Below are positions 41,086 to 55,030 of a DNA stretch of 64,000 nt, in pieces. Positions within the stretch are counted from its first letter, which is position 1. Each line of letters begins with the position of its first letter. The position numbers and the translations under genes are program-made. The notes beneath the pieces are model-generated. The model had not been told where the DNA came from, made no database searches, and saw nothing but the letters and a program-made list of their open reading frames with translations. The DNA is taken from assembly GCF_054482525.1 (NCBI RefSeq), contig NZ_CM137006.1, one strand, 5' to 3'.

Positions 41086-43518
41086 ATGACCACACTGAAA
41101 CTGGACACGCTCAGCGACCGCATTAAAGCGCACAAAAATGCGCTGGTGCATATTGTGAAACCGCCGGTCTGTACCGAGCGCGCGCAGCACTATACCGAGA
41201 TGTATCAACAACATCTCGATAAGCCGATCCCGGTACGTCGCGCGCTGGCACTGGCGCATCACCTGGCGAATCGCACCATCTGGATCAAGCACGATGAGTT
41301 GATCATTGGCAACCAGGCAAGCGAAGTTCGCGCCGCGCCGATCTTCCCGGAATATACCGTCTCCTGGATCGAAAAAGAGATTGATGATCTGGCAGACCGT
41401 CCCGGTGCTGGCTTTGCGGTGAGCGAAGAGAACAAACGCGTTCTGCATGAAGTGTGCCCGTGGTGGCGCGGTCAGACCGTACAGGATCGCTGCTACGGCA
41501 TGTTTACCGATGAGCAAAAAGGTCTGCTGGCGACCGGCATCATTAAAGCGGAAGGCAATATGACCTCCGGCGATGCGCACCTGGCGGTCAATTTCCCGCT
41601 GCTGCTGGAAAAAGGGCTTGATGGTCTGCGCGAGAAAGTAGCGGAACGTCGCTCGCGCATCAACCTGACGGTGCTGGAAGATTTACATGGCGAGCAATTC
41701 CTGAAAGCGATTGATATCGTGCTGGTAGCGGTCAGTGAACACATTGAACGTTTCGCTGCCCTGGCGCGTGAAATGGCCGCGACCGAAACTCGCGAAAGCC
41801 GTCGCGATGAGCTGCTGGCGATAGCAGAAAACTGCGATCTTATCGCCCACCAACCGCCGCAGACTTTCTGGCAGGCGCTGCAACTGTGTTACTTCATCCA
41901 GTTGATTTTGCAGATCGAATCTAACGGTCACTCCGTATCTTTTGGTCGTATGGACCAGTATCTGTACCCGTATTATCGTCGCGACGTTGAACTCAACCAG
42001 ACGCTGGATCGCGAACACGCCATCGAGATGCTGCATAGCTGCTGGCTGAAACTGCTGGAAGTGAACAAGATCCGCTCCGGCTCACACTCAAAAGCCTCTG
42101 CGGGAAGTCCGCTGTATCAGAACGTCACTATTGGCGGGCAAAATCTGGTTGATGGTCAACCAATGGACGCGGTGAATCCACTCTCTTACGCGATCCTCGA
42201 ATCCTGCGGTCGCCTGCGTTCCACTCAGCCTAACCTCAGCGTGCGTTACCATGCAGGAATGAGCAACGATTTCCTCGACGCCTGCGTACAGGTGATCCGT
42301 TGCGGCTTCGGGATGCCGGCGTTCAACAACGACGAAATCGTGATCCCGGAATTTATTAAACTCGGTATTGAACCGCAGGACGCTTACGACTATGCAGCGA
42401 TTGGTTGTATCGAAACCGCCGTCGGTGGCAAATGGGGCTATCGCTGTACCGGCATGAGCTTTATCAACTTCGCCCGCGTGATGCTGGCGGCGCTGGAAGG
42501 CGGTCGTGATGCCACCAGCGGCAAAGTGTTCCTGCCACAAGAAAAAGCGTTGTCGGCGGGTAACTTCAACAACTTCGATGAAGTAATGGACGCATGGGAT
42601 ACGCAAATCCGTTACTACACGCGTAAATCAATCGAAATCGAATATGTCGTTGACACCATGCTGGAAGAGAACGTGCACGATATTCTCTGCTCGGCGCTGG
42701 TGGATGACTGTATTGAGCGAGCGAAAAGTATCAAGCAAGGCGGCGCGAAATATGACTGGGTTTCTGGCCTGCAGGTTGGCATTGCCAACCTCGGCAACAG
42801 CCTGGCGGCAGTGAAGAAACTGGTGTTTGAACAGGGCGCGATTGGTCAGCAACAGCTGGCTGCCGCACTGGCGGATGACTTCGACGGCCTGACTCACGAG
42901 CAACTGCGTCAGCGGCTGATTAACGGCGCGCCGAAGTACGGCAACGACGATGATACTGTCGATACGCTGCTAGCTCGCGCTTATCAGACCTATATCGACG
43001 AACTGAAACAGTACCATAATCCGCGCTACGGTCGTGGTCCGGTTGGCGGCAACTATTACGCGGGTACGTCATCTATCTCCGCTAACGTACCGTTTGGCGC
43101 GCAGACTATGGCAACGCCGGACGGGCGTAAAGCCCACACCCCGCTGGCAGAAGGCGCAAGCCCGGCCTCCGGTACTGACCATCTTGGCCCTACCGCGGTC
43201 ATTGGCTCGGTGGGTAAACTGCCTACGGCAGCGATTCTCGGCGGCGTGTTGCTCAACCAGAAACTGAATCCGGCAACGCTGGAGAACGAATCTGACAAGC
43301 AGAAGCTGATGATCCTGCTGCGCACCTTCTTCGAGGTGCATAAAGGCTGGCATATTCAGTACAACATCGTTTCCCGCGAGACGCTGCTGGAGGCGAAAAA
43401 ACATCCCGATCAGTATCGCGATCTGGTAGTGCGCGTCGCGGGCTATTCCGCCTTCTTCACCGCGCTCTCTCCAGACGCACAGGACGATATCATCGCCCGT
43501 ACTGAACATATGCTGTAA
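41086..43518 (+). CDS. ybiW: Glycyl-radical enzyme YbiW (PflF; pyruvate formate-lyase-like)
   Basis: 810 aa; C-terminal glycyl-radical motif RVAGYSAFF. Confidence 0.9.
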   Translation: MTTLKLDTLSDRIKAHKNALVHIVKPPVCTERAQHYTEMYQQHLDKPIPVRRALALAHHLANRTIWIKHDELIIGNQASEVRAAPIFPEYTVSWIEKEIDDLADRPGAGFAVSEENKRVLHEVCPWWRGQTVQDRCYGMFTDEQKGLLATGIIKAEGNMTSGDAHLAVNFPLLLEKGLDGLREKVAERRSRINLTVLEDLHGEQFLKAIDIVLVAVSEHIERFAALAREMAATETRESRRDELLAIAENCDLIAHQPPQTFWQALQLCYFIQLILQIESNGHSVSFGRMDQYLYPYYRRDVELNQTLDREHAIEMLHSCWLKLLEVNKIRSGSHSKASAGSPLYQNVTIGGQNLVDGQPMDAVNPLSYAILESCGRLRSTQPNLSVRYHAGMSNDFLDACVQVIRCGFGMPAFNNDEIVIPEFIKLGIEPQDAYDYAAIGCIETAVGGKWGYRCTGMSFINFARVMLAALEGGRDATSGKVFLPQEKALSAGNFNNFDEVMDAWDTQIRYYTRKSIEIEYVVDTMLEENVHDILCSALVDDCIERAKSIKQGGAKYDWVSGLQVGIANLGNSLAAVKKLVFEQGAIGQQQLAAALADDFDGLTHEQLRQRLINGAPKYGNDDDTVDTLLARAYQTYIDELKQYHNPRYGRGPVGGNYYAGTSSISANVPFGAQTMATPDGRKAHTPLAEGASPASGTDHLGPTAVIGSVGKLPTAAILGGVLLNQKLNPATLENESDKQKLMILLRTFFEVHKGWHIQYNIVSRETLLEAKKHPDQYRDLVVRVAGYSAFFTALSPDAQDDIIARTEHML

Positions 43519-43526
43519 TCTCCTCG

Positions 43527-43549
43527 GCCCGGCGGCGTCGTCGCCGGGC
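43527..43549 (+). terminator. Hairpin downstream of ybiW
   Basis: gcccggcggcgtcgtcgccgggc. Confidence 0.5.
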
Positions 43550-43663
43550 TAAATCATTCACATAATCAATTCCATCCTTACTTTCATTCGAAATATAATT
43601 TGTGCTCTGCGTCACATTGTTATTACACTGTTACGGTTTCATTTTCGAGCCAGGAGCACACCT

Positions 43664-44479
43664 ATGAGCGTAAAAGTTATCGTCACAGACATGGACGGTA
43701 CTTTTCTTAACGACGCCAAAACGTACAACCAACCACGTTTTATGGCGCAATATCAGGAACTGAAAAAGCGCGGCATTGAGTTCGTTGTCGCTAGCGGTAA
43801 TCAGTATTACCAGCTTATTTCGTTCTTTCCTGAGCTAAAGGATGAGATCTCTTTTGTCGCGGAAAACGGCGCACTGGTTTACGAACATGGCAAGCAGTTG
43901 TTCCACGGCGAACTGACCCGACATGAATCGCGGATTGTGATTGGCGAGTTGCTAAAAGATAAGCAACTCAATTTTGTCGCCTGCGGTCTGCAAAGTGCAT
44001 ATGTCAGCGAAAACGCCCCCGAAGCATTCGTCGCACTGATGGCAAAACACTACCATCGCCTGAAACCTGTAAAAGATTATCAGGAGATTGACGACGTACT
44101 GTTCAAGTTTTCGCTCAACCTGCCGGATGAACAAATCCCGTTAGTGATCGACAAACTGCACATAGCGCTGGATGGCATTATGAAACCCGTTACCAGTGGT
44201 TTTGGCTTTATCGACCTGATTATTCCCGGTCTACATAAAGCAAACGGTATTTCGCGGTTACTGAAACGCTGGGATCTGTCACCGCAAAATGTGGTAGCGA
44301 TTGGCGACAGCGGTAACGATGCGGAGATGCTGAAAATGGCGCGTTATTCCTTTGCGATGGGCAATGCTGCGGAAAACATTAAACAAATCGCCCGTTACGC
44401 TACCGATGATAATAATCATGAAGGCGCGCTGAATGTGATTCAGGCGGTGCTGGATAACACATCCCCTTTTAACAGCTGA
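43664..44479 (+). CDS. ybiV: HAD-family sugar phosphatase YbiV (SupH)
   Basis: 271 aa; paralog of YbjI in the same window ([14 protein letters not shown]). Confidence 0.9.
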
Positions 44480-44630
44480 CCTCTCTACCGGAGCCATGCG
44501 CTCCGGTTTTCCCTTCTTTTTACATCCTGTACATCACATCAAATCATTAAACTTGCATTAACTTATTTATAACTTATATTGTCACATGCAAATCATTATA
44601 GTTTCGAATGAAAGTTAATGCGAGGTGGTT

Positions 44631-45896
44631 ATGGCTTCTACTTTTACCAGCGACACATTGCCTGCCGATCACAAAGCAGCTATCCGTCAGATGAAGCACG
44701 CGCTGCGGGCACAGCTTGGCGACGTCCAGCAGATCTTTAATCAGCTAAGCGATGACATTGCTACGCGAGTGGCTGAAATCAACGCACTCAAAGCACAGGG
44801 CGATGCCGTCTGGCCGGTGCTGTCTTATGCCGATATCAAAGCAGGTCATGTTACTGCAGAGCAGCGCGAACAGATTAAACGTCGCGGTTGTGCGGTGATA
44901 AAAGGCCATTTCCCCCGCGAACAAGCGCTAGGCTGGGATCAGTCGATGCTGGACTATCTGGACCGCAACCGCTTTGACGAGGTCTACAAAGGCCCCGGCG
45001 ATAATTTCTTCGGGACGCTCAGCGCTTCACGTCCCGAGATTTACCCCATCTACTGGTCGCAGGCGCAAATGCAGGCTCGCCAGAGTGAAGAAATGGCGAA
45101 TGCGCAGTCGTTTCTCAATCGTCTGTGGACATTTGAAAGTGATGGAAAGCAATGGTTTAACCCGGATGTGAGCGTCATCTACCCTGACCGTATCCGCCGC
45201 CGTCCGCCCGGAACGACCTCCAAAGGTCTTGGAGCGCATACCGACTCCGGGGCACTGGAACGCTGGCTGCTTCCAGCGTATCAGCGCGTTTTCGCCAACG
45301 TCTTTAATGGCAATCTGGCGCAATATGATCCCTGGCATGCGGCACATCGTACGGAAGTTGAAGAGTACACGGTGGACAACACCACCAAATGTTCCGTGTT
45401 TCGGACATTCCAGGGCTGGACAGCGCTCTCTGATATGCTGCCTGGTCAGGGGCTGCTGCACGTCGTGCCTATTCCTGAAGCCATGGCGTACGTACTGTTA
45501 CGTCCGCTGCTTGATGATGTGCCGGAGGATGAACTGTGCGGCGTAGCGCCCGGAAGAGTATTGCCGGTATCAGAGCAATGGCATCCACTGTTGATTGAGG
45601 CGTTAACCAGCATTCCAAAACTCGAAGCCGGAGACTCCGTCTGGTGGCACTGCGACGTCATCCATTCCGTTGCCCCCGTTGAAAATCAACAGGGCTGGGG
45701 CAACGTGATGTACATTCCTGCGGCACCGATGTGCGAGAAAAATCTTGCCTACGCGCACAAGGTGAAGGCCGCACTGGAAAAAGGCGCATCGCCGGGCGAC
45801 TTCCCGCGCGAGGACTATGAAACAAACTGGGAAGGACGCTTTACGCTTGCCGACCTCAACATTCACGGTAAGCGAGCGTTGGGAATCGACAGCTGA
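44631..45896 (+). CDS. ybiU: DUF1479-family protein YbiU
   Basis: 421 aa from MASTFTSD; synteny. Confidence 0.85.
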   Translation: MASTFTSDTLPADHKAAIRQMKHALRAQLGDVQQIFNQLSDDIATRVAEINALKAQGDAVWPVLSYADIKAGHVTAEQREQIKRRGCAVIKGHFPREQALGWDQSMLDYLDRNRFDEVYKGPGDNFFGTLSASRPEIYPIYWSQAQMQARQSEEMANAQSFLNRLWTFESDGKQWFNPDVSVIYPDRIRRRPPGTTSKGLGAHTDSGALERWLLPAYQRVFANVFNGNLAQYDPWHAAHRTEVEEYTVDNTTKCSVFRTFQGWTALSDMLPGQGLLHVVPIPEAMAYVLLRPLLDDVPEDELCGVAPGRVLPVSEQWHPLLIEALTSIPKLEAGDSVWWHCDVIHSVAPVENQQGWGNVMYIPAAPMCEKNLAYAHKVKAALEKGASPGDFPREDYETNWEGRFTLADLNIHGKRALGIDS

Positions 45897-46966
45897 GTGT
45901 CGTACAGCCCTTCCCGTTCCACGGCGGTGTTCCCTTTTCCTGGGCGAACCCGCCGCACTGACTCCCGCACCGCCAATCGTCCGTGCAGCAGCAGCGAGCC
46001 CACCGGAGCATCCGGGCGAATCAGCCGCTGTTGCAACATTTGCACCGCTTCATTGCCTAGCTCATCGCGTGGCACATGCACAGCCGTCAGGGGAACATCC
46101 TCGATTGCCGCAAGGTTAAAGCCGTCGATACTCATCACCGAGACATCCTGTGGTACGCGCAGACCACGACGATGTAGCGCATTTACCGTTCCCGCCGCCA
46201 TAAAATCCCCGCCGACCAGAAACGCCGTCGGCAACGTCTTGCCATTGGCGGCATCCAGCCACGCTCCGACCTTTTCTTCCGCTTCTTTAGCGCTAAAACT
46301 GCTGATATTCAGCAAATGACGGTCATGGTGAAAGGCCAGATTATGCTGACGCCATGATTCTTTAATCCCTGCAAACCGCTGCTCCATAGTGTAGCGGCGC
46401 AGGCACATCACATTCATCACCTCCCGGTGACCCATTTCAAACAGATAGCGGGCGGCGAACGCGCCAATTAACCGATGGTCCGGCGCAATCGCCGGGAGGC
46501 GCATTCGTTCATCACGGCAGTTGATCAGCACACAAGGCTTAGCGAGATCGGCGGCCAGATCATGGATGTGCGGATCGTCAATCCCCAGCAGGATCGCCGC
46601 CTGCGTATCTGCTTCATTCATCCGCGAGAGAAATAGCGCGGGATCGCTGTCAAACTCCTCCAGCGCGCAGTAACGCAGCCGCACTTCATGCGGCGATAAC
46701 GCTTTGCTGATGCTCTGGATCACACGGTAATAAAAGATATCAGATCGTTGGTCAAAAGCGCGTTGCGGCGCGAAAATAATCAGGTTGTTCAGCAACATAC
46801 GACCTGCTGCCATGCCATCCATCACGCCCAACTCACGCGCGCAGGCCAGCACCTGTTCGCGAGCGCGTGCACTGGTATTCGCTTTGCCAGCCAGCACCCG
46901 CGAAACCGTACTCGGCGATAGCCCGGTACGTGCGGCGATATCGGCGATTTTCAACTTCTTGTCCAT
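45863..46966 (-). CDS. LacI-family transcriptional regulator (accessory; absent from K-12 at this position)
   Basis: N-terminal helix-turn-helix MDKKLKIADIAARTGLSPSTVSRVLAG and periplasmic-binding-protein-like sugar-binding core; 367 aa from ATG 46966; 3' end overlaps the ybiU 3' end by 34 bp. Confidence 0.85.
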   Translation of the reverse strand: MDKKLKIADIAARTGLSPSTVSRVLAGKANTSARAREQVLACARELGVMDGMAAGRMLLNNLIIFAPQRAFDQRSDIFYYRVIQSISKALSPHEVRLRYCALEEFDSDPALFLSRMNEADTQAAILLGIDDPHIHDLAADLAKPCVLINCRDERMRLPAIAPDHRLIGAFAARYLFEMGHREVMNVMCLRRYTMEQRFAGIKESWRQHNLAFHHDRHLLNISSFSAKEAEEKVGAWLDAANGKTLPTAFLVGGDFMAAGTVNALHRRGLRVPQDVSVMSIDGFNLAAIEDVPLTAVHVPRDELGNEAVQMLQQRLIRPDAPVGSLLLHGRLAVRESVRRVRPGKGNTAVEREGLYDTQLSIPNARLP

Positions 46967-47260
46967 TTTGTGATCTGCCTCTAATTCGGAAATGACAGAA
47001 TTTTCATGAGCAAAAAAGCCCATTCTGTCTGGCATTAAATCCATTTCAGTAATGTATATCAGTCACTCATGGAAAAACGTGCACAAAACCCGCTTTCTTT
47101 CGCTTTTAGGGTCTCTTACTGTGAATTGGTAGAACAACTTCCATACAAAAATAATGGAAAAACGAACAATAAAGACTTTATTTATCAAAAAGTTAAAAGT
47201 GGTGTGACAACTCCATTCTGACGTTGCCGCACAAACCCTATACCATTCTGTGGAGTGCAT

Positions 47261-48562
47261 ATGAGTCAGGGTATCAATAACGATATGACTGCCAGTAAAC
47301 CGCGCCATATCGTCAAAAATCTGCGTTGGTGGATACTGGTCCTTTTTTTGCTCGGTGTTACTGTCAACTACATCACGCGTAACTCGCTGGGTATTCTCGC
47401 CCCCGAACTGAAAAGCAGCCTGGGGATTACCACCGAACAATATTCCTGGATTGTAGGTGCTTTCCAGCTCGCCTATACCCTATTCCAACCGTTGTGTGGA
47501 TGGCTGATTGACGTCATTGGCCTCAAACTGGGCTTTATGATCTGCGCGGGACTGTGGGCGCTGGCCTGTCTGATGCATGCGGGGGCGGGAAACTGGGTAC
47601 ATCTGGCGCTGTTGCGCTTCTTTATGGGCGGTGCGGAAGCCGCGGCAACCCCAGCAAACGCCAAAACCATCGGTGAATGGTTTCCAAAATCAGAACGCCC
47701 GATCGCCGCAGGCTGGGCAGGCGTCGGTTTTTCCATCGGTGCCATGCTGGCCCCACCGATTATCTATTTTGCCCACGCTTCATTCGGCTGGCAGGGTGCA
47801 TTTATGTTCACTGGCATCCTGGCGATGCTGTGGGTGGTGCTGTGGTGGGCGTTCTATCACAACCCGGATAAGCATCCTAACCTCAGCAAAGCCGAACTGG
47901 ACTTTATCCGCCAGGATAACGAAGCGCCCCCTGTCAAGTTACCCTTTCTGACCGCACTGAAAACCGTAGGCAAAAATAAACGCTTTTACGGTATCGCTAT
48001 CCCGGCCTTTATGGCAGAACCGGCGTGGGCGGTGATGAGTTTCTGGGTTCCGCTATACCTGTCCAAAACCTATGGCATGGACCTGAAGCAGATCGCATTA
48101 TTCGCCTGGTTGCCGTTCCTCGCCGCTGATCTTGGCAGTATTGCCAGCGGCTATCTGACCAAACTTTACACCCGCCTGTTTGGGCTGAGTCGTGTGAACT
48201 CCGTTGTCGCATCATCGGTCAGTGGCGCATTCCTGATGGTTTCGCTGGCGGTGATGGCCTTTACCAATAACCCGTATATCGCCATCGTCCTTATTTCCAT
48301 CGGCGGCTTCGGTCACCAGATCATCTCCTGCATGCTGAGCGCACTGGTGGTGGAATCCTTCGACAAAGGTCAGATGGCCACTGTTAACGGCATGCGCGGT
48401 TCTGCCGCGTGGATCGCAAGTTTCCTGTTCTCCCTGATTATCGGGGTTACCGCTGACAAAATCGGCTTTACCCCCCTGTTTATCGCCATGGGCTTCTTTG
48501 ACCTGATTGGTGCTTTCTTCCTGGTCACCTTTATTGCTGAACGTCGCGCAAAACGCGCCTGA
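47261..48562 (+). CDS. MFS transporter of the anion:cation symporter family, ExuT-like (accessory)
   Basis: About 40% identity by eye to E. coli ExuT across the N-terminal half (LAPELKSSLGITTEQYSWIVGAFQLAYTLFQP...); 12-TM MFS; start ATG 47261 or GTG 47255. Confidence 0.85.
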   Translation: MSQGINNDMTASKPRHIVKNLRWWILVLFLLGVTVNYITRNSLGILAPELKSSLGITTEQYSWIVGAFQLAYTLFQPLCGWLIDVIGLKLGFMICAGLWALACLMHAGAGNWVHLALLRFFMGGAEAAATPANAKTIGEWFPKSERPIAAGWAGVGFSIGAMLAPPIIYFAHASFGWQGAFMFTGILAMLWVVLWWAFYHNPDKHPNLSKAELDFIRQDNEAPPVKLPFLTALKTVGKNKRFYGIAIPAFMAEPAWAVMSFWVPLYLSKTYGMDLKQIALFAWLPFLAADLGSIASGYLTKLYTRLFGLSRVNSVVASSVSGAFLMVSLAVMAFTNNPYIAIVLISIGGFGHQIISCMLSALVVESFDKGQMATVNGMRGSAAWIASFLFSLIIGVTADKIGFTPLFIAMGFFDLIGAFFLVTFIAERRAKRA

Positions 48563-48576
48563 GAGTGGATGTAAAC

Positions 48577-50940
48577 ATGAAAACGCTGAAAAACTGGACC
48601 CTGCACAAACAGTCTGCCCACCACGTTGAACTGCTGGTCGATGGCCAGCATATCCTGTGCCTGTACGTGCTGGAAGAAAATCTGTTCCGCGTGCTGTTAA
48701 AACGCAAAGGCGAGCTGGCGCTGGATCGCACCTGGAGCATTGCTCCGGCGCAGGATGTGCCATGGGAAGGGCGCAGCCGCGAAGATCTCAGCGGCTTTAG
48801 CCTGCCCGCGTGGACATTGATCCAGCACGACGACACCGTGGTTATCGCCACCGAGTCACTGCGTGCCACCGTTCACCAGCCGCTGTGGCTGGAGTGGCAC
48901 TATCGTAACAACGAAGGCGAATGGCTGCCGTTGGTGAATGACCGCCCGACCAGCGCTTATCTGCTGAATGCCCACGGCGACGGCGTGGCGCACTATCAGA
49001 GCCGTCGTAAAGATGAACGCTTTTATGGCCTCGGAGATAAAGCCGGCGACCTGCAACGCAACGGTAAACGTTACGAGATGCGTAACCTCGACGCGATGGG
49101 CTACAACGCCGTTAGTACTGACCCGTTGTACAAACACATTCCATTCACCATCACCCGCCGCGATGACATTAGCTTCGGCCTGTTTTATGACAACCTCAGC
49201 AGCTGCTGGCTGGATCTGGGCAACGAGATCGACAACTACCACACCGCCTATCGCCGCTGGCAGGCGGAAGCGGGTGATATCGACTACTACCTGTTTACCG
49301 GCGAACGCGTACTTGATATCACCAAAGCCTTCGTACGCCTGACCGGAAAAACCCTGTTCGGACCGAAATGGAGCCTGGGCTACAGCGGTTCAACTATGCA
49401 CTACACCGATGCGCCGGACGCACAAAATCAGTTGATGAACTTTATCCGCCTGTGTGAAGAACATGCGATTCCCTGCGATTCGTTCCAGCTCTCTTCCGGT
49501 TATACCTCAATTAACGGCAAGCGCTATGTGTTCAACTGGAATTACGACAAAGTGCCGCAGCCGAAAGTGATGAGCCAGGCATTTCACAATGCTGGTTTGC
49601 ACCTGGCCGCCAATATCAAGCCGTGCCTGTTGCAGGATCACCCACGCTATAACGAAGTGGCAGAAAGAGGACTGTTCATCCGTGATTCAGAAACAGATGA
49701 ACCAGAACGTTCCAGCTTCTGGGATGACGAAGGTTCTAACCTCGACTTTACTAATCCGCAGACCATACAGTGGTGGCAGGAAGGCGTGACCACACAGCTT
49801 CTGGAGATGGGTATCGACTCCACCTGGAACGACAACAACGAATTCGAAGTGTGGGACGGTGAAGCACGCTGTCACGGCTTTGGTCAGACGATCGCGATCA
49901 AACATATTCGCCCGGTGATGCCACTGCTGATGATGCGAGCCTCGATGGAAGCCCAGCAACGTTTCGCTCCGGAAAAACGTCCGTACTTGATCTCCCGCTC
50001 CGGCTGCGCGGGAATGCAGCGCTATGTGCAGACCTGGAGCGGCGATAACCGCACTAGCTGGGACACTCTGCGCTACAACACCCGCATGGGTCTGGGGATG
50101 AGCCTCTCCGGGCTGTATAACCTCGGTCACGACGTCGGCGGTTTCTCCGGTGATAAGCCGGACCCGGAACTGTTTGTACGCTGGGTACAAAACGGCGTGA
50201 TGCATCCGCGCTTTACGATTCACTCATGGAACGATGACCATACCGTAAACGAACCGTGGATGTATCCGGGTGTCACTCCGGCGATCCGCAGCGCTATTGA
50301 GTTGCGCTATCGCCTGCTGCCCTACTTTTATACCCTGATGTGGCAGGCATACGCCGATGATGAACCAATGCTACGTCCGACTTTCCTTGACCACGAGCAC
50401 GACGTTCAGACTTTTGAAGAGTGTGATGACTTCCTGCTTGGTCGCGATATTTTGGTTGCCAGCGTCGTAGAGCAAGGCGAGCGCCAGCGCCGTGTATGGC
50501 TGCCAGATAACGAAACTGGCTGGTACGATTTCTACAACGGCGAATGGTTCAGTGGCGGTCAGTGGATCACCCTCGACGCACCGCTGGAGAAACTGCCGCT
50601 GATGGTGCGTGCCGGGGCTGGTCTACCGCTCAGCAAACGCATCACCTATGTGAGCGCAGAACAAGACGATACCCGCGAACTGAAACTGTTCCCGCTGAAA
50701 GGTGTGGGCACAACGTCCGGCCTGCTGTTTGAAGACGATGGCGAAAGCTGGGGCTACCAAACTGGTAATGCGCTTTGGGTGGAATGGGAAATGGTTTGCG
50801 ATGGGGCGACCATCAACCTGAAAGTCAACGCGCGCGGGGATTATCGTCCTGCATGGAGTGCACTGAAAGTGTCATTACCAGTGGAAGAAAAACGCACGCT
50901 GCTGGTCAATGGTGTTGAAGGGAGTGAATGGATGCGTTAA
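48577..50940 (+). CDS. Glycoside hydrolase family 31 alpha-glycosidase (accessory), specificity unknown
   Basis: GH31 motifs: nucleophile region STWNDNNEFE, acid/base region QTWSGDNRTSW and GHDVGGF; 787 aa from ATG 48577; 14 nt after the transporter stop (operon). Confidence 0.85.
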   Translation: MKTLKNWTLHKQSAHHVELLVDGQHILCLYVLEENLFRVLLKRKGELALDRTWSIAPAQDVPWEGRSREDLSGFSLPAWTLIQHDDTVVIATESLRATVHQPLWLEWHYRNNEGEWLPLVNDRPTSAYLLNAHGDGVAHYQSRRKDERFYGLGDKAGDLQRNGKRYEMRNLDAMGYNAVSTDPLYKHIPFTITRRDDISFGLFYDNLSSCWLDLGNEIDNYHTAYRRWQAEAGDIDYYLFTGERVLDITKAFVRLTGKTLFGPKWSLGYSGSTMHYTDAPDAQNQLMNFIRLCEEHAIPCDSFQLSSGYTSINGKRYVFNWNYDKVPQPKVMSQAFHNAGLHLAANIKPCLLQDHPRYNEVAERGLFIRDSETDEPERSSFWDDEGSNLDFTNPQTIQWWQEGVTTQLLEMGIDSTWNDNNEFEVWDGEARCHGFGQTIAIKHIRPVMPLLMMRASMEAQQRFAPEKRPYLISRSGCAGMQRYVQTWSGDNRTSWDTLRYNTRMGLGMSLSGLYNLGHDVGGFSGDKPDPELFVRWVQNGVMHPRFTIHSWNDDHTVNEPWMYPGVTPAIRSAIELRYRLLPYFYTLMWQAYADDEPMLRPTFLDHEHDVQTFEECDDFLLGRDILVASVVEQGERQRRVWLPDNETGWYDFYNGEWFSGGQWITLDAPLEKLPLMVRAGAGLPLSKRITYVSAEQDDTRELKLFPLKGVGTTSGLLFEDDGESWGYQTGNALWVEWEMVCDGATINLKVNARGDYRPAWSALKVSLPVEEKRTLLVNGVEGSEWMR

Positions 50941-51119
50941 ATCATTACCGGGGCCGGGAGGCGACTGCGCCTTACCCGGTCAAGCCATCGAATCCTTTAC
51001 CTCAGTATTTCACGCTGCAGGAAGGCAGCAAACCTGTAAACCCCGGGAGCTTAAATAAGTAAGTGACCGGGGTGAACAGGTGAAGCCAATGCATCTGCCG
51101 CATGAAAGACGGCGGGAAA

Positions 51120-52715
51120 TTAACCGTCGATCCCTTTACTACGCAGGTAATCTTCGTAATTACCGCTAAAGTCGATCACGCGTTCCGGGGTGATTTCCAG
51201 AATGCGGGTCGCCAGGGAGCTTACAAACTCACGGTCGTGAGAAACAAAGATCAGCGTGCCCTGATACAGTTCCAGTGCCATGTTCAGCGACTCAATGGAT
51301 TCCATATCCAGGTGGTTGGTCGGTTCGTCCATGATCAGAATGTTCGGCTTCTGCATCATTAACTTACCAAACAGCATCCGCCCTTTTTCTCCACCGGAAA
51401 GCACTTTCGCTGGCTTTTTGATGTCGTCCTGGCTGAACAGCAAACGACCGAGAATGCTGCGTACCGCCTGCTCGTCATCGCCTTCCTGCTTCCACTGACT
51501 CATCCATTCGAACACGGTCAGATCATTTTCGAACTCATATTCGTGGTCCTGGGCGTAGTAACCAATGCGCGCGTTTTCAGACCATTTTACGGTGCCGCTG
51601 TCCGGTTGCAGATCGCCCACCAGCGTTTTCAGCAGCGTTGATTTACCGACGCCGTTGGTACCCAGTACCGCCAGTTTTTCACCGACTTCCAGCAGCAGGT
51701 TGAGATTTTTAAACAGTGGACCGTTATCAAACCCTTTGGTCAGACCTTCCACTTCCAGCGCGTTACGGAACAGTTTCTTATCCTGTTCAAAACGGATGAA
51801 CGGATTCTGACGGCTGGAGGCTTTCACCTCTTCCAGTTTGATTTTATCAATCTGGCGCGCGCGCGAAGTTGCCTGGCGAGATTTCGAGGCGTTGGCGCTA
51901 AAGCGGCTAACGAAAGATTGCAGCTCAGCAATCTGCGCTTTCTTCTTGGCGTTATCGGCCAGCAGACGTTCACGCGCCTGGGTCGCCGCCGTCATGTACT
52001 CATCGTAGTTACCCGGATAAACGCGCAGCTCGCCGTAATCCAGATCCGCCATGTGGGTACAAACCATGTTAAGGAAGTGACGGTCGTGCGAGATGATGAT
52101 CATGGTGCTGTCACGCTCGTTCAGCACCTGTTCCAGCCAACGAATGGTGTCGATGTCGAGGTTGTTGGTCGGTTCGTCGAGCAGGAGAATGTCCGGATCA
52201 GCAAACAGCGCCTGCGCCAGCAGCACACGCAGCTTCCAGCCAGGAGCAACTTCACTCATCGGGCCGTAGTGCTGTTCCACTGGAATTCCCACGCCAAGCA
52301 ACAGTTCACCGGCGCGAGCTTCCGCAGAGTAACCGTCCATTTCGCCGTATTTCACTTCCAGATCGGCCACTTTATAGCCGTCTTCTTCACTCATTTCCGG
52401 CAAAGCATAGATGCGGTCACGCTCCTGCTTCACTTCCCACAACTCTTTATGCCCCATGATCACCGTATCCAGCACAGTGAACTCTTCAAAGGCAAACTGA
52501 TCCTGACGCAGCTTACCAATGCGCTCGTTGGGATCGAGGGAAACGTTACCCAACGTCGGCTCTAAGTCGCCGCCGAGGATCTTCATAAAGGTGGATTTAC
52601 CACTACCGTTCGCGCCAATCAGGCCGTAACGGTTGCCGCCGCCGAATTTGACGGAAATGTTTTCAAACAACGGCTTACTGCCGAACTGCATGGTGACGTT
52701 ACTGGAAACTAACAC
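51120..52715 (-). CDS. ybiT: ABC-F family ATPase YbiT
   Basis: About 530 aa; two ABC cassettes ([18 protein letters not shown]) and no membrane domain. Confidence 0.9.
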
Positions 52716-52933
52716 AGGCGTATCCTGAAAAGAGATATGACAAACCGCGCATTATGCCATAAGTCTGAAAGAAGATCCTGCTCCTCGCTTAAGGTCTACA
52801 CTCAAGCCAAAGGCAAAAAATGTGATTTCGTACACATCTGATTTCACTGTGAGCTGGAATGAACTTATAATGCGCTTCCAATACTCTAATATTCTCAACC
52901 CAATGGCCTGCCAGGCACAAAATCTCGCTTAAC

Positions 52934-53854
52934 ATGAATATGAAATTGAAAACATTATTCGCAGCGGCCTTCGCTGTTGTCGGCTTTTGCAGTACCGCCT
53001 CTGCGGTAACTTATCCTCTGCCAACCGACGGGAGTCGCCTGGTTGGTCAGAATCAGGTGATCACCATTCCTGAAGGTAACACTCAGCCGCTGGAGTATTT
53101 TGCCGCCGAGTACCAGATGGGGCTTTCCAATATGATGGAAGCGAACCCCGGTGTGGATACCTTCCTGCCGAAAGGCGGTACTGTACTGAACATTCCGCAG
53201 CAGCTGATCCTGCCGGATACCGTTCATGAAGGCATCGTCATTAACAGTGCAGAGATGCGTCTGTATTACTATCCGAAAGGAACCAACACCGTTATCGTGC
53301 TGCCGATCGGCATTGGTCAGTTAGGCAAAGACACGCCTATCAACTGGACCACCAAAGTTGAGCGTAAAAAAGCAGGCCCGACCTGGACGCCAACCGCTAA
53401 AATGCACGCAGAGTACCGCGCTGCGGGCGAACCGCTTCCGGCTGTCGTTCCGGCAGGTCCGGATAACCCGATGGGTCTGTATGCACTCTACATCGGTCGC
53501 CTGTACGCAATCCATGGCACCAACGCCAACTTCGGTATCGGCCTGCGTGTAAGTCATGGTTGTGTGCGTCTGCGTAACGAAGACATCAAATTCCTGTTCG
53601 AGAAAGTACCAGTCGGTACCCGCGTACAGTTTATTGATGAGCCGGTAAAAGCGACTACCGAACCAGACGGCAGCCGTTACATTGAAGTCCATAACCCGCT
53701 GTCTACCACCGAAGCCCAGTTTGAAGGTCAGGAAATTGTGCCAATTACCCTGACGAAGAGCGTGCAGACAGTGACCGGTCAGCCAGATGTTGACCAGGTT
53801 GTTCTTGATGAAGCGATCAAAAATCGTTCCGGGATGCCGGTTCGTCTGAATTAA
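52934..53854 (+). CDS. ldtB: L,D-transpeptidase LdtB (YbiS)
   Basis: 306 aa; signal peptide and YkuD domain with catalytic SHGCVRL. Confidence 0.9.
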
Positions 53855-53872
53855 TCGTCAAAACGTAAAACA

Positions 53873-53899
53873 AAGGCGGACTCATAATCCGCCTTTTTA
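53873..53899 (+). terminator. Intrinsic terminator downstream of ldtB
   Basis: Hairpin aaaggcggactcataatccgccttt plus T run. Confidence 0.7.
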
Positions 53900-53911
53900 A
53901 TTTGCCAGACC

Positions 53912-55030
53912 TTATCCCGCCGGGATCATAACCAACAAAACATATCCCACCAGCGCCGCCCACAACAGCATCGGTATTGAATAGAGATGGAAACGCCACC
54001 AGATACGGCGATCGTTCGCCATCCGTAACGCAATCAAATTTGCCAGCGATCCGGGTAATAAACCAAAGCCACCCACGTTTACCGCCCATGCCAGTAATAA
54101 AGACGGCGGCACATAATTGAGCAGCAAAATCGTGCTCGGCACGTTACTGATCACCTGCGATAAACCGATTGCCGTTAACCATAATCCGGGTTCGGATAAA
54201 TGACTCACGTTACTTAACACCCCCTGCAAAGCTGGCAGTTGGGTTAGTAAATGGACGTCGATAAACATCGCCATAAACACCAGCAGCAGCGTCCAGTCCA
54301 CACTGAGCAACACGCGACGTGCCAGCAGCGCAAAGCCCACCGCCACAATCACCAGTCCCCACAGCTCTTGTTTTAACTCCAGCGCCATCAGAAAGACGAT
54401 ATACAGCCCCAGACAACTCCACACCAGCCGCGGTTTCCACTCCGGCGTTTGCGCCCCCGTATGGTATTGCAGCGCCTTTCCAGGGAAACAACACCAGCAC
54501 AGGAGCAGGAGCGTCAGCATCATTGCGCCAGCCAGTGGTGCCATTTGGGCAATAAATCCGGCAAACGAAAGACCAGAACGTCCCCAGATAAGAATATTTT
54601 GCGGGTTGCCAATTGGCGTCAGTAGCGAACCAGCGTTGACTGCCAGCGCTTCAAAAATAATCAGCCGATTAACCGGGATCTCACACAGTCTTTTTAGCGT
54701 GATAGTCAGCGGAACAACAATAAACAGCGCGACATCGTTGGTCAGAAAGGTAGAAAGCAGCGCCGCCGCCAGCACCATAAACATCGCCAGCCGACGCTCC
54801 GTAGCAAAGCGGCGCACCATTTTGCGCCCCAGCACATCAAAATAACCGCTTAGCTCCACACCTTTAGTCAGCAGCATCAGGCCGCTTAAGGTGATGATGG
54901 TGTGCCAGTCGATAGCAGCAGGCCAGGATTTCGGTGCAAAGGGAACAAAAAAACTTAATCCGATGCCAACAAGAATTAATAACTGAAAAAAACGATCGCC
55001 TTGCAGCGTGCGTAAAAAAGGCAGGCTCAT
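53912..55030 (-). CDS. ybiR: Putative transporter YbiR
   Basis: 372-aa polytopic membrane protein; 4-nt overlap with mntR. Confidence 0.85.

Follow-up and report, generated by a model that had tools for sequence, protein, structure and literature searches.

A 34-bp convergent overlap between ybiU and a LacI-family regulator gene in Escherichia coli, and its probable origin by stop-codon loss at an ancestral 4-bp overlap

Results

Genes and features of the ybiU–ybiT locus

The window (the whole stretch of DNA analysed, 64,000 nucleotides of contig NZ_CM137006.1, assembly GCF_054482525.1) carries ybiU, which converges tail to tail on a gene for a LacI-family regulator, followed by genes for an MFS transporter and a GH31 glycoside hydrolase and by ybiT (Table 1). 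Read from the sequence, the phase of the overlap between ybiU and the regulator gene brings third codon positions together and sets positions 1 and 2 of ybiU opposite positions 2 and 1 of the regulator. Both genes were found to be bona fide: YbiU matched the Gig2-like family (E 3e-154), the regulator contained a LacI helix-turn-helix (HTH) and a Peripla_BP_3 domain, and orthologues were present in more than 60 species. A literature search listed 13 papers that mention ybiU; none of them named the gene in its title or abstract, and none listed was on the junction or the cassette.

Table 1. Position, strand and basis of the features discussed, numbered from the first nucleotide of the window
Feature	Position	Strand	Basis
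ybiU (DUF1479 / Gig2-like, 421 aa)	44631..45896 (ORF 44625/44631)	+	ORF list, PF07350, PGAP
ybiU stop TGA	45894-45896	+	raw sequence
LacI-family regulator, 367 aa from MDKK start	45863..46966	-	ORF list, PF00356, PF13377, PF00532
Regulator stop TGA (+ strand TCA; T of ybiU ATT and CA of CAC)	45863-45865	-	
Convergent coding overlap, 34 bp	45863..45896		ORF list, raw sequence, PGAP
Predicted read-through extension, residues 358-367 (QLSIPNARLP), antisense to last 10 ybiU codons	45866..45895	-	
Haplotype-specific ybiU end; left limit of presence/absence polymorphism	45884..45893	+	
CTGA, putative former interlocked double stop (YTAR in 53 species)	45893..45896	.	
G of CTGA; A>G would keep the ybiU stop (TAA>TGA) and turn regulator stop TAA into CAA/CAG (Gln358)	45895		cross-species tetramers
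Family-wide tail, residues 338-357 (RRVRPGKGNTAVEREGLYDT), beyond PurR-like core	45896..45955	-	homologue and PurR alignments
Conserved hairpin, 12 bp, one bulge, 9-nt loop, no U-tract	45922..45955	+	62-species alignment
MFS transporter, 433 aa, divergent from regulator	47261..48562	+	profile matches, PGAP
GH31 glycoside hydrolase, alpha-glucosidase-like	48577..50940	+	profile matches, PGAP
Dispersed intergenic repeat copy, GH31-ybiT spacer	51007..51116	.	
ybiT (ABC-F ATPase)	51120..52715	-	PGAP
ybiT last codons, haplotype-specific (GIDG* here, GIE* in K-12); right limit of polymorphism	51120-51126	-	

We compared the open reading frames with PGAP annotation and with 5426 complete E. coli genomes. 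The PGAP CDS ends in strains SCU-102 and Z226-7 gave the same two genes with the same 34-bp overlap, and the junction (161 bp) was found full-length in 576 of the 5426 genomes at 97.5-100% identity. The original prediction had described a 34-bp convergent overlap and had named a mis-called stop as one way in which it could fail; the overlap was borne out by the open reading frames, PGAP and the 576 genomes. Artefacts are generally frequent among long overlaps (PMC2478687), but faulty sequencing or a wrongly annotated stop in this assembly has next to no probability, since 576 independent complete genomes share the junction, the PGAP ends agree, and both the frame and the stop recur in eight other species.

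The remaining parts of the cassette were then annotated. The GH31 protein scored below every NCBIfam equivalog cut-off. The repeat in the GH31-ybiT spacer, which we take to be ERIC-like from its resemblance to ERIC/IRU, occurred at a median of 7 places per E. coli genome (73-83% identity) and was also found directly after ybiT in Citrobacter and Enterobacter loci. The divergent intergenic region between the regulator and MFS genes contained an imperfect 20-nt direct repeat (47069-47088, ATGGAAAAACGTGCACAAAA; 47154-47173, ATGGAAAAACGAACAATAAA), which could be related to promoters or operators, and a repeat search found no palindromic operator there. No family reached its gathering score in an Rfam scan of 43000-54000.

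The regulator carries a family-wide tail and a clade-specific extension

The regulator was recognised as a member of the LacI/GalR family by PF00356 (33.6 bits, cut-off 27) and PF13377 (97.6 bits). It matched no named equivalog (RbsR, CytR, PurR, GalR and others), the best NCBIfam score being that of RbsR (113.6 bits against a cut-off of 382). The protein counted from the MDKK start has 367 aa and ends in ...RRVRPGKGNTAVEREGLYDTQLSIPNARLP, and the C-terminal peptide of the predicted extended form is EGLYDTQLSIPNARLP. An alternative annotated start at 47023 gives 386 aa and the longest ORF begins at 47044; alignment with homologues supports MDKK as the probable start. PGAP itself placed the start inconsistently between genomes (386 aa in locus L001, 367 aa in L089; window 46966-47044).

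The PurR alignment covered regulator residues 7-337 and Pfam Peripla_BP_3 also ended at 337, so that 30 of the 367 residues lie beyond the core, in agreement with the length given in the original prediction. A homologue search of a large protein collection returned several hundred relatives at 70-92% identity from Kluyvera, Pseudocitrobacter, Salmonella, Citrobacter, Enterobacter, Klebsiella, Raoultella, Kosakonia and other genera. The first 20 tail residues (RRVRPGKxxTAVEREGLYD) were conserved in every homologue, over a set that spans more than 20 genera; RRxRPGxxxTAVxxxGLYD was kept throughout a 23-sequence alignment, in which G353-L354-Y355-D356 was invariant. Most homologues had 357 aa and ended one residue past GLYD (GLYDx*). 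In the same alignment only the E. coli, Kluyvera, Pseudocitrobacter and S. diarizonae proteins continued, with Q[LTASP]x[IM]P[NS]ARLP. Thus 20 of the 30 residues are shared family-wide and 10 are clade-specific, and the 20-residue part is not a strain-specific extension. The suggestion that the whole tail was read-through holds for its last 10 residues, which are antisense to ybiU, and not for the first 20. Homologues with an earlier end, which the original prediction had asked to be looked for, do exist, but at 357 aa they are only 10 aa shorter rather than about 30. An AlphaFold2 model built on the 23-sequence alignment had a mean pLDDT of 63.9 with values below 50 for residues 283-367, and was not used for the tail.

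Several variants were seen among regulator records. One E. coli allele of 334 aa, ending ...LHGRLAVR, had no tail at all, perhaps because of a nonsense mutation or of truncation at the end of a contig; in another, an IS (rve-domain) fusion broke the HTH (P0004 and P0026). A minority E. coli islet allele (Z226-7, L089) read ...GLYDNQLSIPSARLP, with T357N and N363S (window 45879 and 45897); it was nearer the Kluyvera form, and its overlap was still 34 bp. Orthologues in several database records (P0003, P0028, P0078, P0099) were labelled 'cytochrome-c peroxidase', evidently a propagated misannotation.

The junction occurs in two states across the Enterobacteriaceae

We scanned 100,044 species-representative genomes, obtained 80 loci, and placed ybiU, the regulator, the MFS gene, the GH31 gene and ybiT in each by script. 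The results showed that the order ybiU / regulator / MFS / GH31 / ybiT was kept in more than 60 Enterobacteriaceae species, that MFS, GH31 and ybiT lay beside the regulator gene in nearly every one of the 80 loci, and that ybiU was convergent and overlapping with the regulator gene in 61 species plus E. coli. In 53 species the overlap was exactly 4 bp and the regulator had 357 aa. The 34-bp overlap, in the same frame and with the same stop, was found outside E. coli in eight species: Kluyvera (4), Pseudocitrobacter (3) and Salmonella diarizonae. YbiU had 419-421 aa in both states. The extension itself is unremarkable in length, since 10 stop-free codons after a lost stop are about what is expected statistically; the unusual aspect is 34 bp against 4 bp in 53 other species. 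In Kluyvera genomosp. 3 (L004), the regulator had the 367-aa extended form, and the best YbiU match stopped early (...PVENQQGWGT), which suggests that ybiU is frameshifted or disrupted in that genome.

We compared the tetramers at the point where the two genes meet. The 53 loci with a 4-bp overlap all read YTAR (TTAA 33, CTAA 10, TTAG 5, CTAG 5), a tetramer in which two bases count both for the ybiU stop and, as their complement, for the regulator stop. All 10 loci with a 34-bp overlap read NTGA (CTGA 8, TTGA 1, GTGA 1), TTGA belonging to S. diarizonae and GTGA to Pseudocitrobacter faecalis, at the same aligned position. Salmonella had both states: one S. enterica genome ended ybiU with GAC ATT TAA (TTAA, 4 bp) and S. 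diarizonae with GAC GTT TGA (TTGA, 34 bp). Between-species variation within the overlap fell mostly at the shared third codon positions.

Proposed stop-codon loss at an ancestral 4-bp overlap

These comparisons lead us to propose that the overlap arose by stop-codon loss at an ancestral 4-bp tail-to-tail overlap, a reading to which we give a probability of roughly 0.85. In an ancestral YTAR, bases 2-4 would have formed the ybiU stop (TAA or TAG) and the complement of bases 1-3 the regulator stop (TAA or TAG), and the third base would have served both genes, as the middle letter of the ybiU stop and as the partner, on the other strand, of the letter that opens the regulator stop. An A>G change at this base, in the one lineage of regulators that comprises those of E. 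coli, Kluyvera, Pseudocitrobacter and Salmonella, would have been silent for ybiU, whose stop is kept as TGA, and would have converted the regulator stop TAA to CAA (Gln), so that ribosomes would continue. Later drift at 45893, a wobble site that both genes share, may have turned CAA into CAG or CAC. Translation would then cover 10 further codons, on the strand opposite the ...HGKRALGIDS codons of ybiU, before meeting the TGA supplied by the ybiU codons ATT-CAC. Two observations fit these steps: TTAA and TTGA occupy the same aligned position, and the extension is exactly 10 codons long, reaching the TGA at 45863-45865.

The polarity of the change was assessed with a neighbour-joining tree of regulators from which the extension had been trimmed. 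All extended regulators formed one clade, and the S. enterica sequence with a 4-bp overlap lay within it, which implies one gain and one reversal, or three gains. Under midpoint rooting the extended clade was one of two basal branches. We infer that the 4-bp state is ancestral, with the polarity taken from outgroups and logic, the tree not being rooted: the 357-aa ending also occurs where ybiU is not adjacent, including in Edwardsiella; the 4-bp state is widespread; and the extension is simply antisense ybiU.

The extension is probably tolerated rather than functional

We examined the untranslated 'virtual' peptide past the regulator stop in the species with the 4-bp state. It read [IM]P[SNR]AR[LF]P in 52 of the 53 species, and because this peptide is kept without read-through, the conservation of the extension mirrors the GKRALG motif of YbiU and is no evidence of selection on the regulator. 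Residues 2-4 of the extension varied freely between species. A second copy of the cassette (regulator-MFS-GH31), about 71% identical, was observed elsewhere in some E. coli, for example in a contig of E. coli GCA_002519925.1 (L085 3049-8116), amid transposase genes, beside molybdopterin oxidoreductase genes and without ybiU. The regulator of this mobile copy had CAA at the old stop position, an unrelated 13-aa extension and no hairpin. From the conservation of the virtual peptide, the unrelated tail of the mobile copy and the reversal in Salmonella, the extension appears to be tolerated and selectively near-neutral rather than functional.

Its predicted persistence in four genera, whose regulators are 85-92% identical, is also compatible with a weak benefit. 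Either the extension or the longer antisense overlap could be useful; the former might affect stability or oligomerisation of the regulator, and the latter might couple it more tightly to ybiU by antisense or convergent transcription, since neither gene has an intergenic terminator and the transcripts must overlap. We consider such an adaptive origin unlikely, however: the sequence of the extension is dictated by YbiU coding whether or not it is translated, it was reversed in one Salmonella enterica genome and replaced by the unrelated 13-aa tail in the mobile copy, and the free variation at residues 2-4 points the same way.

A conserved hairpin lies within the tail-coding sequence

When the 90 nt that follow the ybiU stop were aligned across 62 species, a conserved hairpin became apparent 26-60 nt past that stop, embedded in the codons of the regulator tail. 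Paired bases made up 95.8% of sequence-by-pair cells, compared to 23-46% when the partners were slid by 1-3 columns. Double changes were found at three pairs, and one covarying pair joined the third positions of two Arg codons (U-A 40, C-G 11, G-C 2, A-U 1). The natural folds were more stable than synonymous recodings that kept the protein, with a median z of -1.9 when read as ybiU RNA and of -0.9 when read as regulator RNA; many of the pairs were G-U only in the ybiU sense. Where ybiU abutted the regulator gene, z was below 0 in 63 of 63 loci (mean -2.1), compared to a mean of -0.8 in the 17 non-abutting loci (Mann-Whitney p ~1e-5, ignoring phylogeny). The hairpin was lost in the mobile copy and in two species in which ybiU lies 0.5-1 kb away.

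Neither strand had a U-tract (3' flank of the hairpin: ACUGACUCCCG), so the hairpin is not a canonical intrinsic terminator. A terminator consensus scan placed two weak sites on either side of the overlap (45914-45927, + strand; 45800-45788, - strand), a count equal to the shuffle expectation. A dispersed REP-like repeat was considered and rejected, as a search of 0.49 Mb of loci with covariance model R1 yielded the orthologous copy alone. The hairpin is most likely a 3'-end or stabilising stem-loop of the ybiU transcript. The tail may even be in dual use, its RRxRxGxxxTAV codons also forming a conserved stem-loop that serves ybiU mRNA as a 3'-end or terminator element; we offer this tentatively, as the less probable side of the question. 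The tail could have originated by an earlier read-through into what was then an intergenic hairpin.

The junction is not a scar of islet gain or loss in E. coli

The cassette was accessory within E. coli, being present in 576 of the 5426 genomes, and its position between ybiU and ybiT is ancestral at the family level. At least four haplotypes were distinguished in E. coli: a K-12 type, in which a 240-bp spacer with a REP element separates ybiU from ybiT; the islet-positive type; a type with neither ybiU nor the islet; and a type with a divergent ybiU. The islet-positive and K-12-type haplotypes differed sharply only at their edges. Six of the 13 differences from K-12 ybiU fell in 45884-45893 (GGA ATC GAC AGC against GGC ATG GAT GTT), and the terminal codons of both flanking genes differed (ybiU GIDS* against GMDV*; ybiT as in Table 1).

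The third type was observed in SF-173 (L087 8146-10753), where ybiV was followed by about 200 bp and ybiT; only the ybiT-proximal part of the K-12 spacer was kept, and roughly 1150-1200 of the 5426 genomes appeared to be of this kind. In EC42405 (L088 1989-3248; L090), a 419-aa ybiU allele was about 14% divergent in DNA. The divergent YbiU protein clustered with members labelled E. fergusonii, and its gene, ending ...ATG GAT GTT TGA, lay in an islet-less context with a REP spacer homologous to that of K-12. Because the divergent ybiU is also islet-less with a K-12-like spacer, the islet-less structure is old in Escherichia, and the K-12 haplotype is an old derived state. An IS621 (IS110-like) element was also seen in the REP-containing ybiU-ybiT spacer of the islet-less E. 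coli strain XJ55 (L003 4758-5738).

These haplotypes bear on the idea that the junction is a scar, in which insertion or excision of the islet set the regulator 3' end against ybiU, removed the stop and made the extension. Accessory occurrence of the cassette and a polymorphism boundary within the last four ybiU codons speak for it. The identical arrangement with its extension in Kluyvera, Pseudocitrobacter and S. diarizonae speaks against it, as do 53 further species with the same junction and a 4-bp overlap. No direct or inverted repeats, integrase or GC shift was found at the islet (GC 0.49-0.58, like the flanks), and the nearest non-Escherichia cassette was only 78-89% identical in DNA. 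The islet also lacked the marks of an inserted element, with only three metabolic genes and the same position in more than 60 species. We therefore regard a scar as very improbable. The original prediction had proposed that the islet junction created the extension; this fails on the same 34-bp overlap and near-identical tail in the other genera, a shared tail being what it had itself named as refuting. Its alternative, that K-12 lost the islet by a deletion leaving ybiU intact, was rejected: a simple deletion from the islet-positive sequence could not have left K-12 with a 240-bp spacer that this sequence lacks, and the terminal codons of both flanking genes differ. Nor does the junction record how the locus was gained or lost, given the lack of repeats and GC shift and the family-wide conservation of position.

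We then analysed DNA identity in sliding windows. Citrobacter was the nearest genus for ybiU (79-86%) and Kluyvera for the segment that runs from the regulator gene into the 5' part of GH31 (78-89%), and the remainder was at about the same distance from every genus; immediately after ybiT, the sequence matched Citrobacter and Enterobacter, not Kluyvera. A Kluyvera donor was rejected, with an identity of only 78-89% over the regulator-GH31-5' stretch and a ybiT-proximal end of the Citrobacter/Enterobacter kind. DNA identity to the E. coli islet stayed at about 89% or less everywhere outside Escherichia, so it was not imported recently, and no sampled genus is plausible as a recent donor. Long retention of the polymorphism in Escherichia and re-acquisition from an unsampled relative are about equally probable, and under either one the junction is not a scar of islet gain or loss.

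Discussion

Convergent overlaps of 4 bp with the complementary stops TTAA, CTAA, TTAG and CTAG have been described (PMC2174442; PMC2478687), and mutation of a stop codon is a recognised route to longer ones (Lillo & Krakauer 2007, PMC2174442; Palleja et al. 2008, PMC2478687; Rogozin et al. 2002 as cited there). The ybiU/regulator pair resembles these known cases in that both genes are bona fide and the ancestral junction would be one of the four known tetramers. It differs from them in that both states stand side by side in related genera, even within Salmonella, and in that the causal base can be identified; the proposed change would be neutral for one partner (TAA>TGA) and abolish the stop of the other. 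Where convergent overlaps exceed 4 bp, the phase with third positions facing each other is the rarest (18%; Table 3 of PMC2174442), and here it would be inherited from the tetramer. The mechanism is thus already known, and the present locus is an unusually clear instance of it.

The regulator shares with the LacI/GalR repressors PurR, RbsR, CytR and LacI an N-terminal LacI-type HTH and a PBP-like effector domain, and, as in that family, its gene points away from those of the transporter and hydrolase that it presumably controls. Unlike these repressors, it has a 20-residue family-specific tail past the PurR-like core and, in one clade, the predicted 10-residue read-through.

REP/BIME and other GC-rich 3' hairpins without a U-tract stabilise upstream mRNA. 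The hairpin at 45922-45955 is likewise GC-rich and U-tract-less and lies a few tens of nucleotides after the ybiU stop, and islet-less K-12 has a REP element at the corresponding place downstream of ybiU. In contrast to REP/BIME elements, this hairpin is single-copy and lies within the coding sequence of the opposite strand. If the tail is in dual use, the protein tail and the RNA structure of the neighbouring gene would constrain each other, and ybiU would be a gene with no intergenic space for its own 3' element. If the tail arose as an older read-through, the present 10-codon extension would be a second step of the same process. The hairpin offers a testable case of coding sequence shaped by the RNA of a neighbouring gene.

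For E. coli, the presence/absence polymorphism of the cassette is an old replacement-type haplotype difference at a position that is ancient. For annotation, the locus teaches that a long tail-to-tail overlap may be genuine, and that a conserved C-terminal extension need not be functional where it lies opposite the coding strand of a conserved protein. For the Enterobacteriaceae, the junction provides a clean, datable example of the growth of a convergent overlap, with both states visible in sister lineages. Interlocked stops of this kind would act as a one-base toggle, in which a neutral change in one gene deletes the stop of its neighbour.
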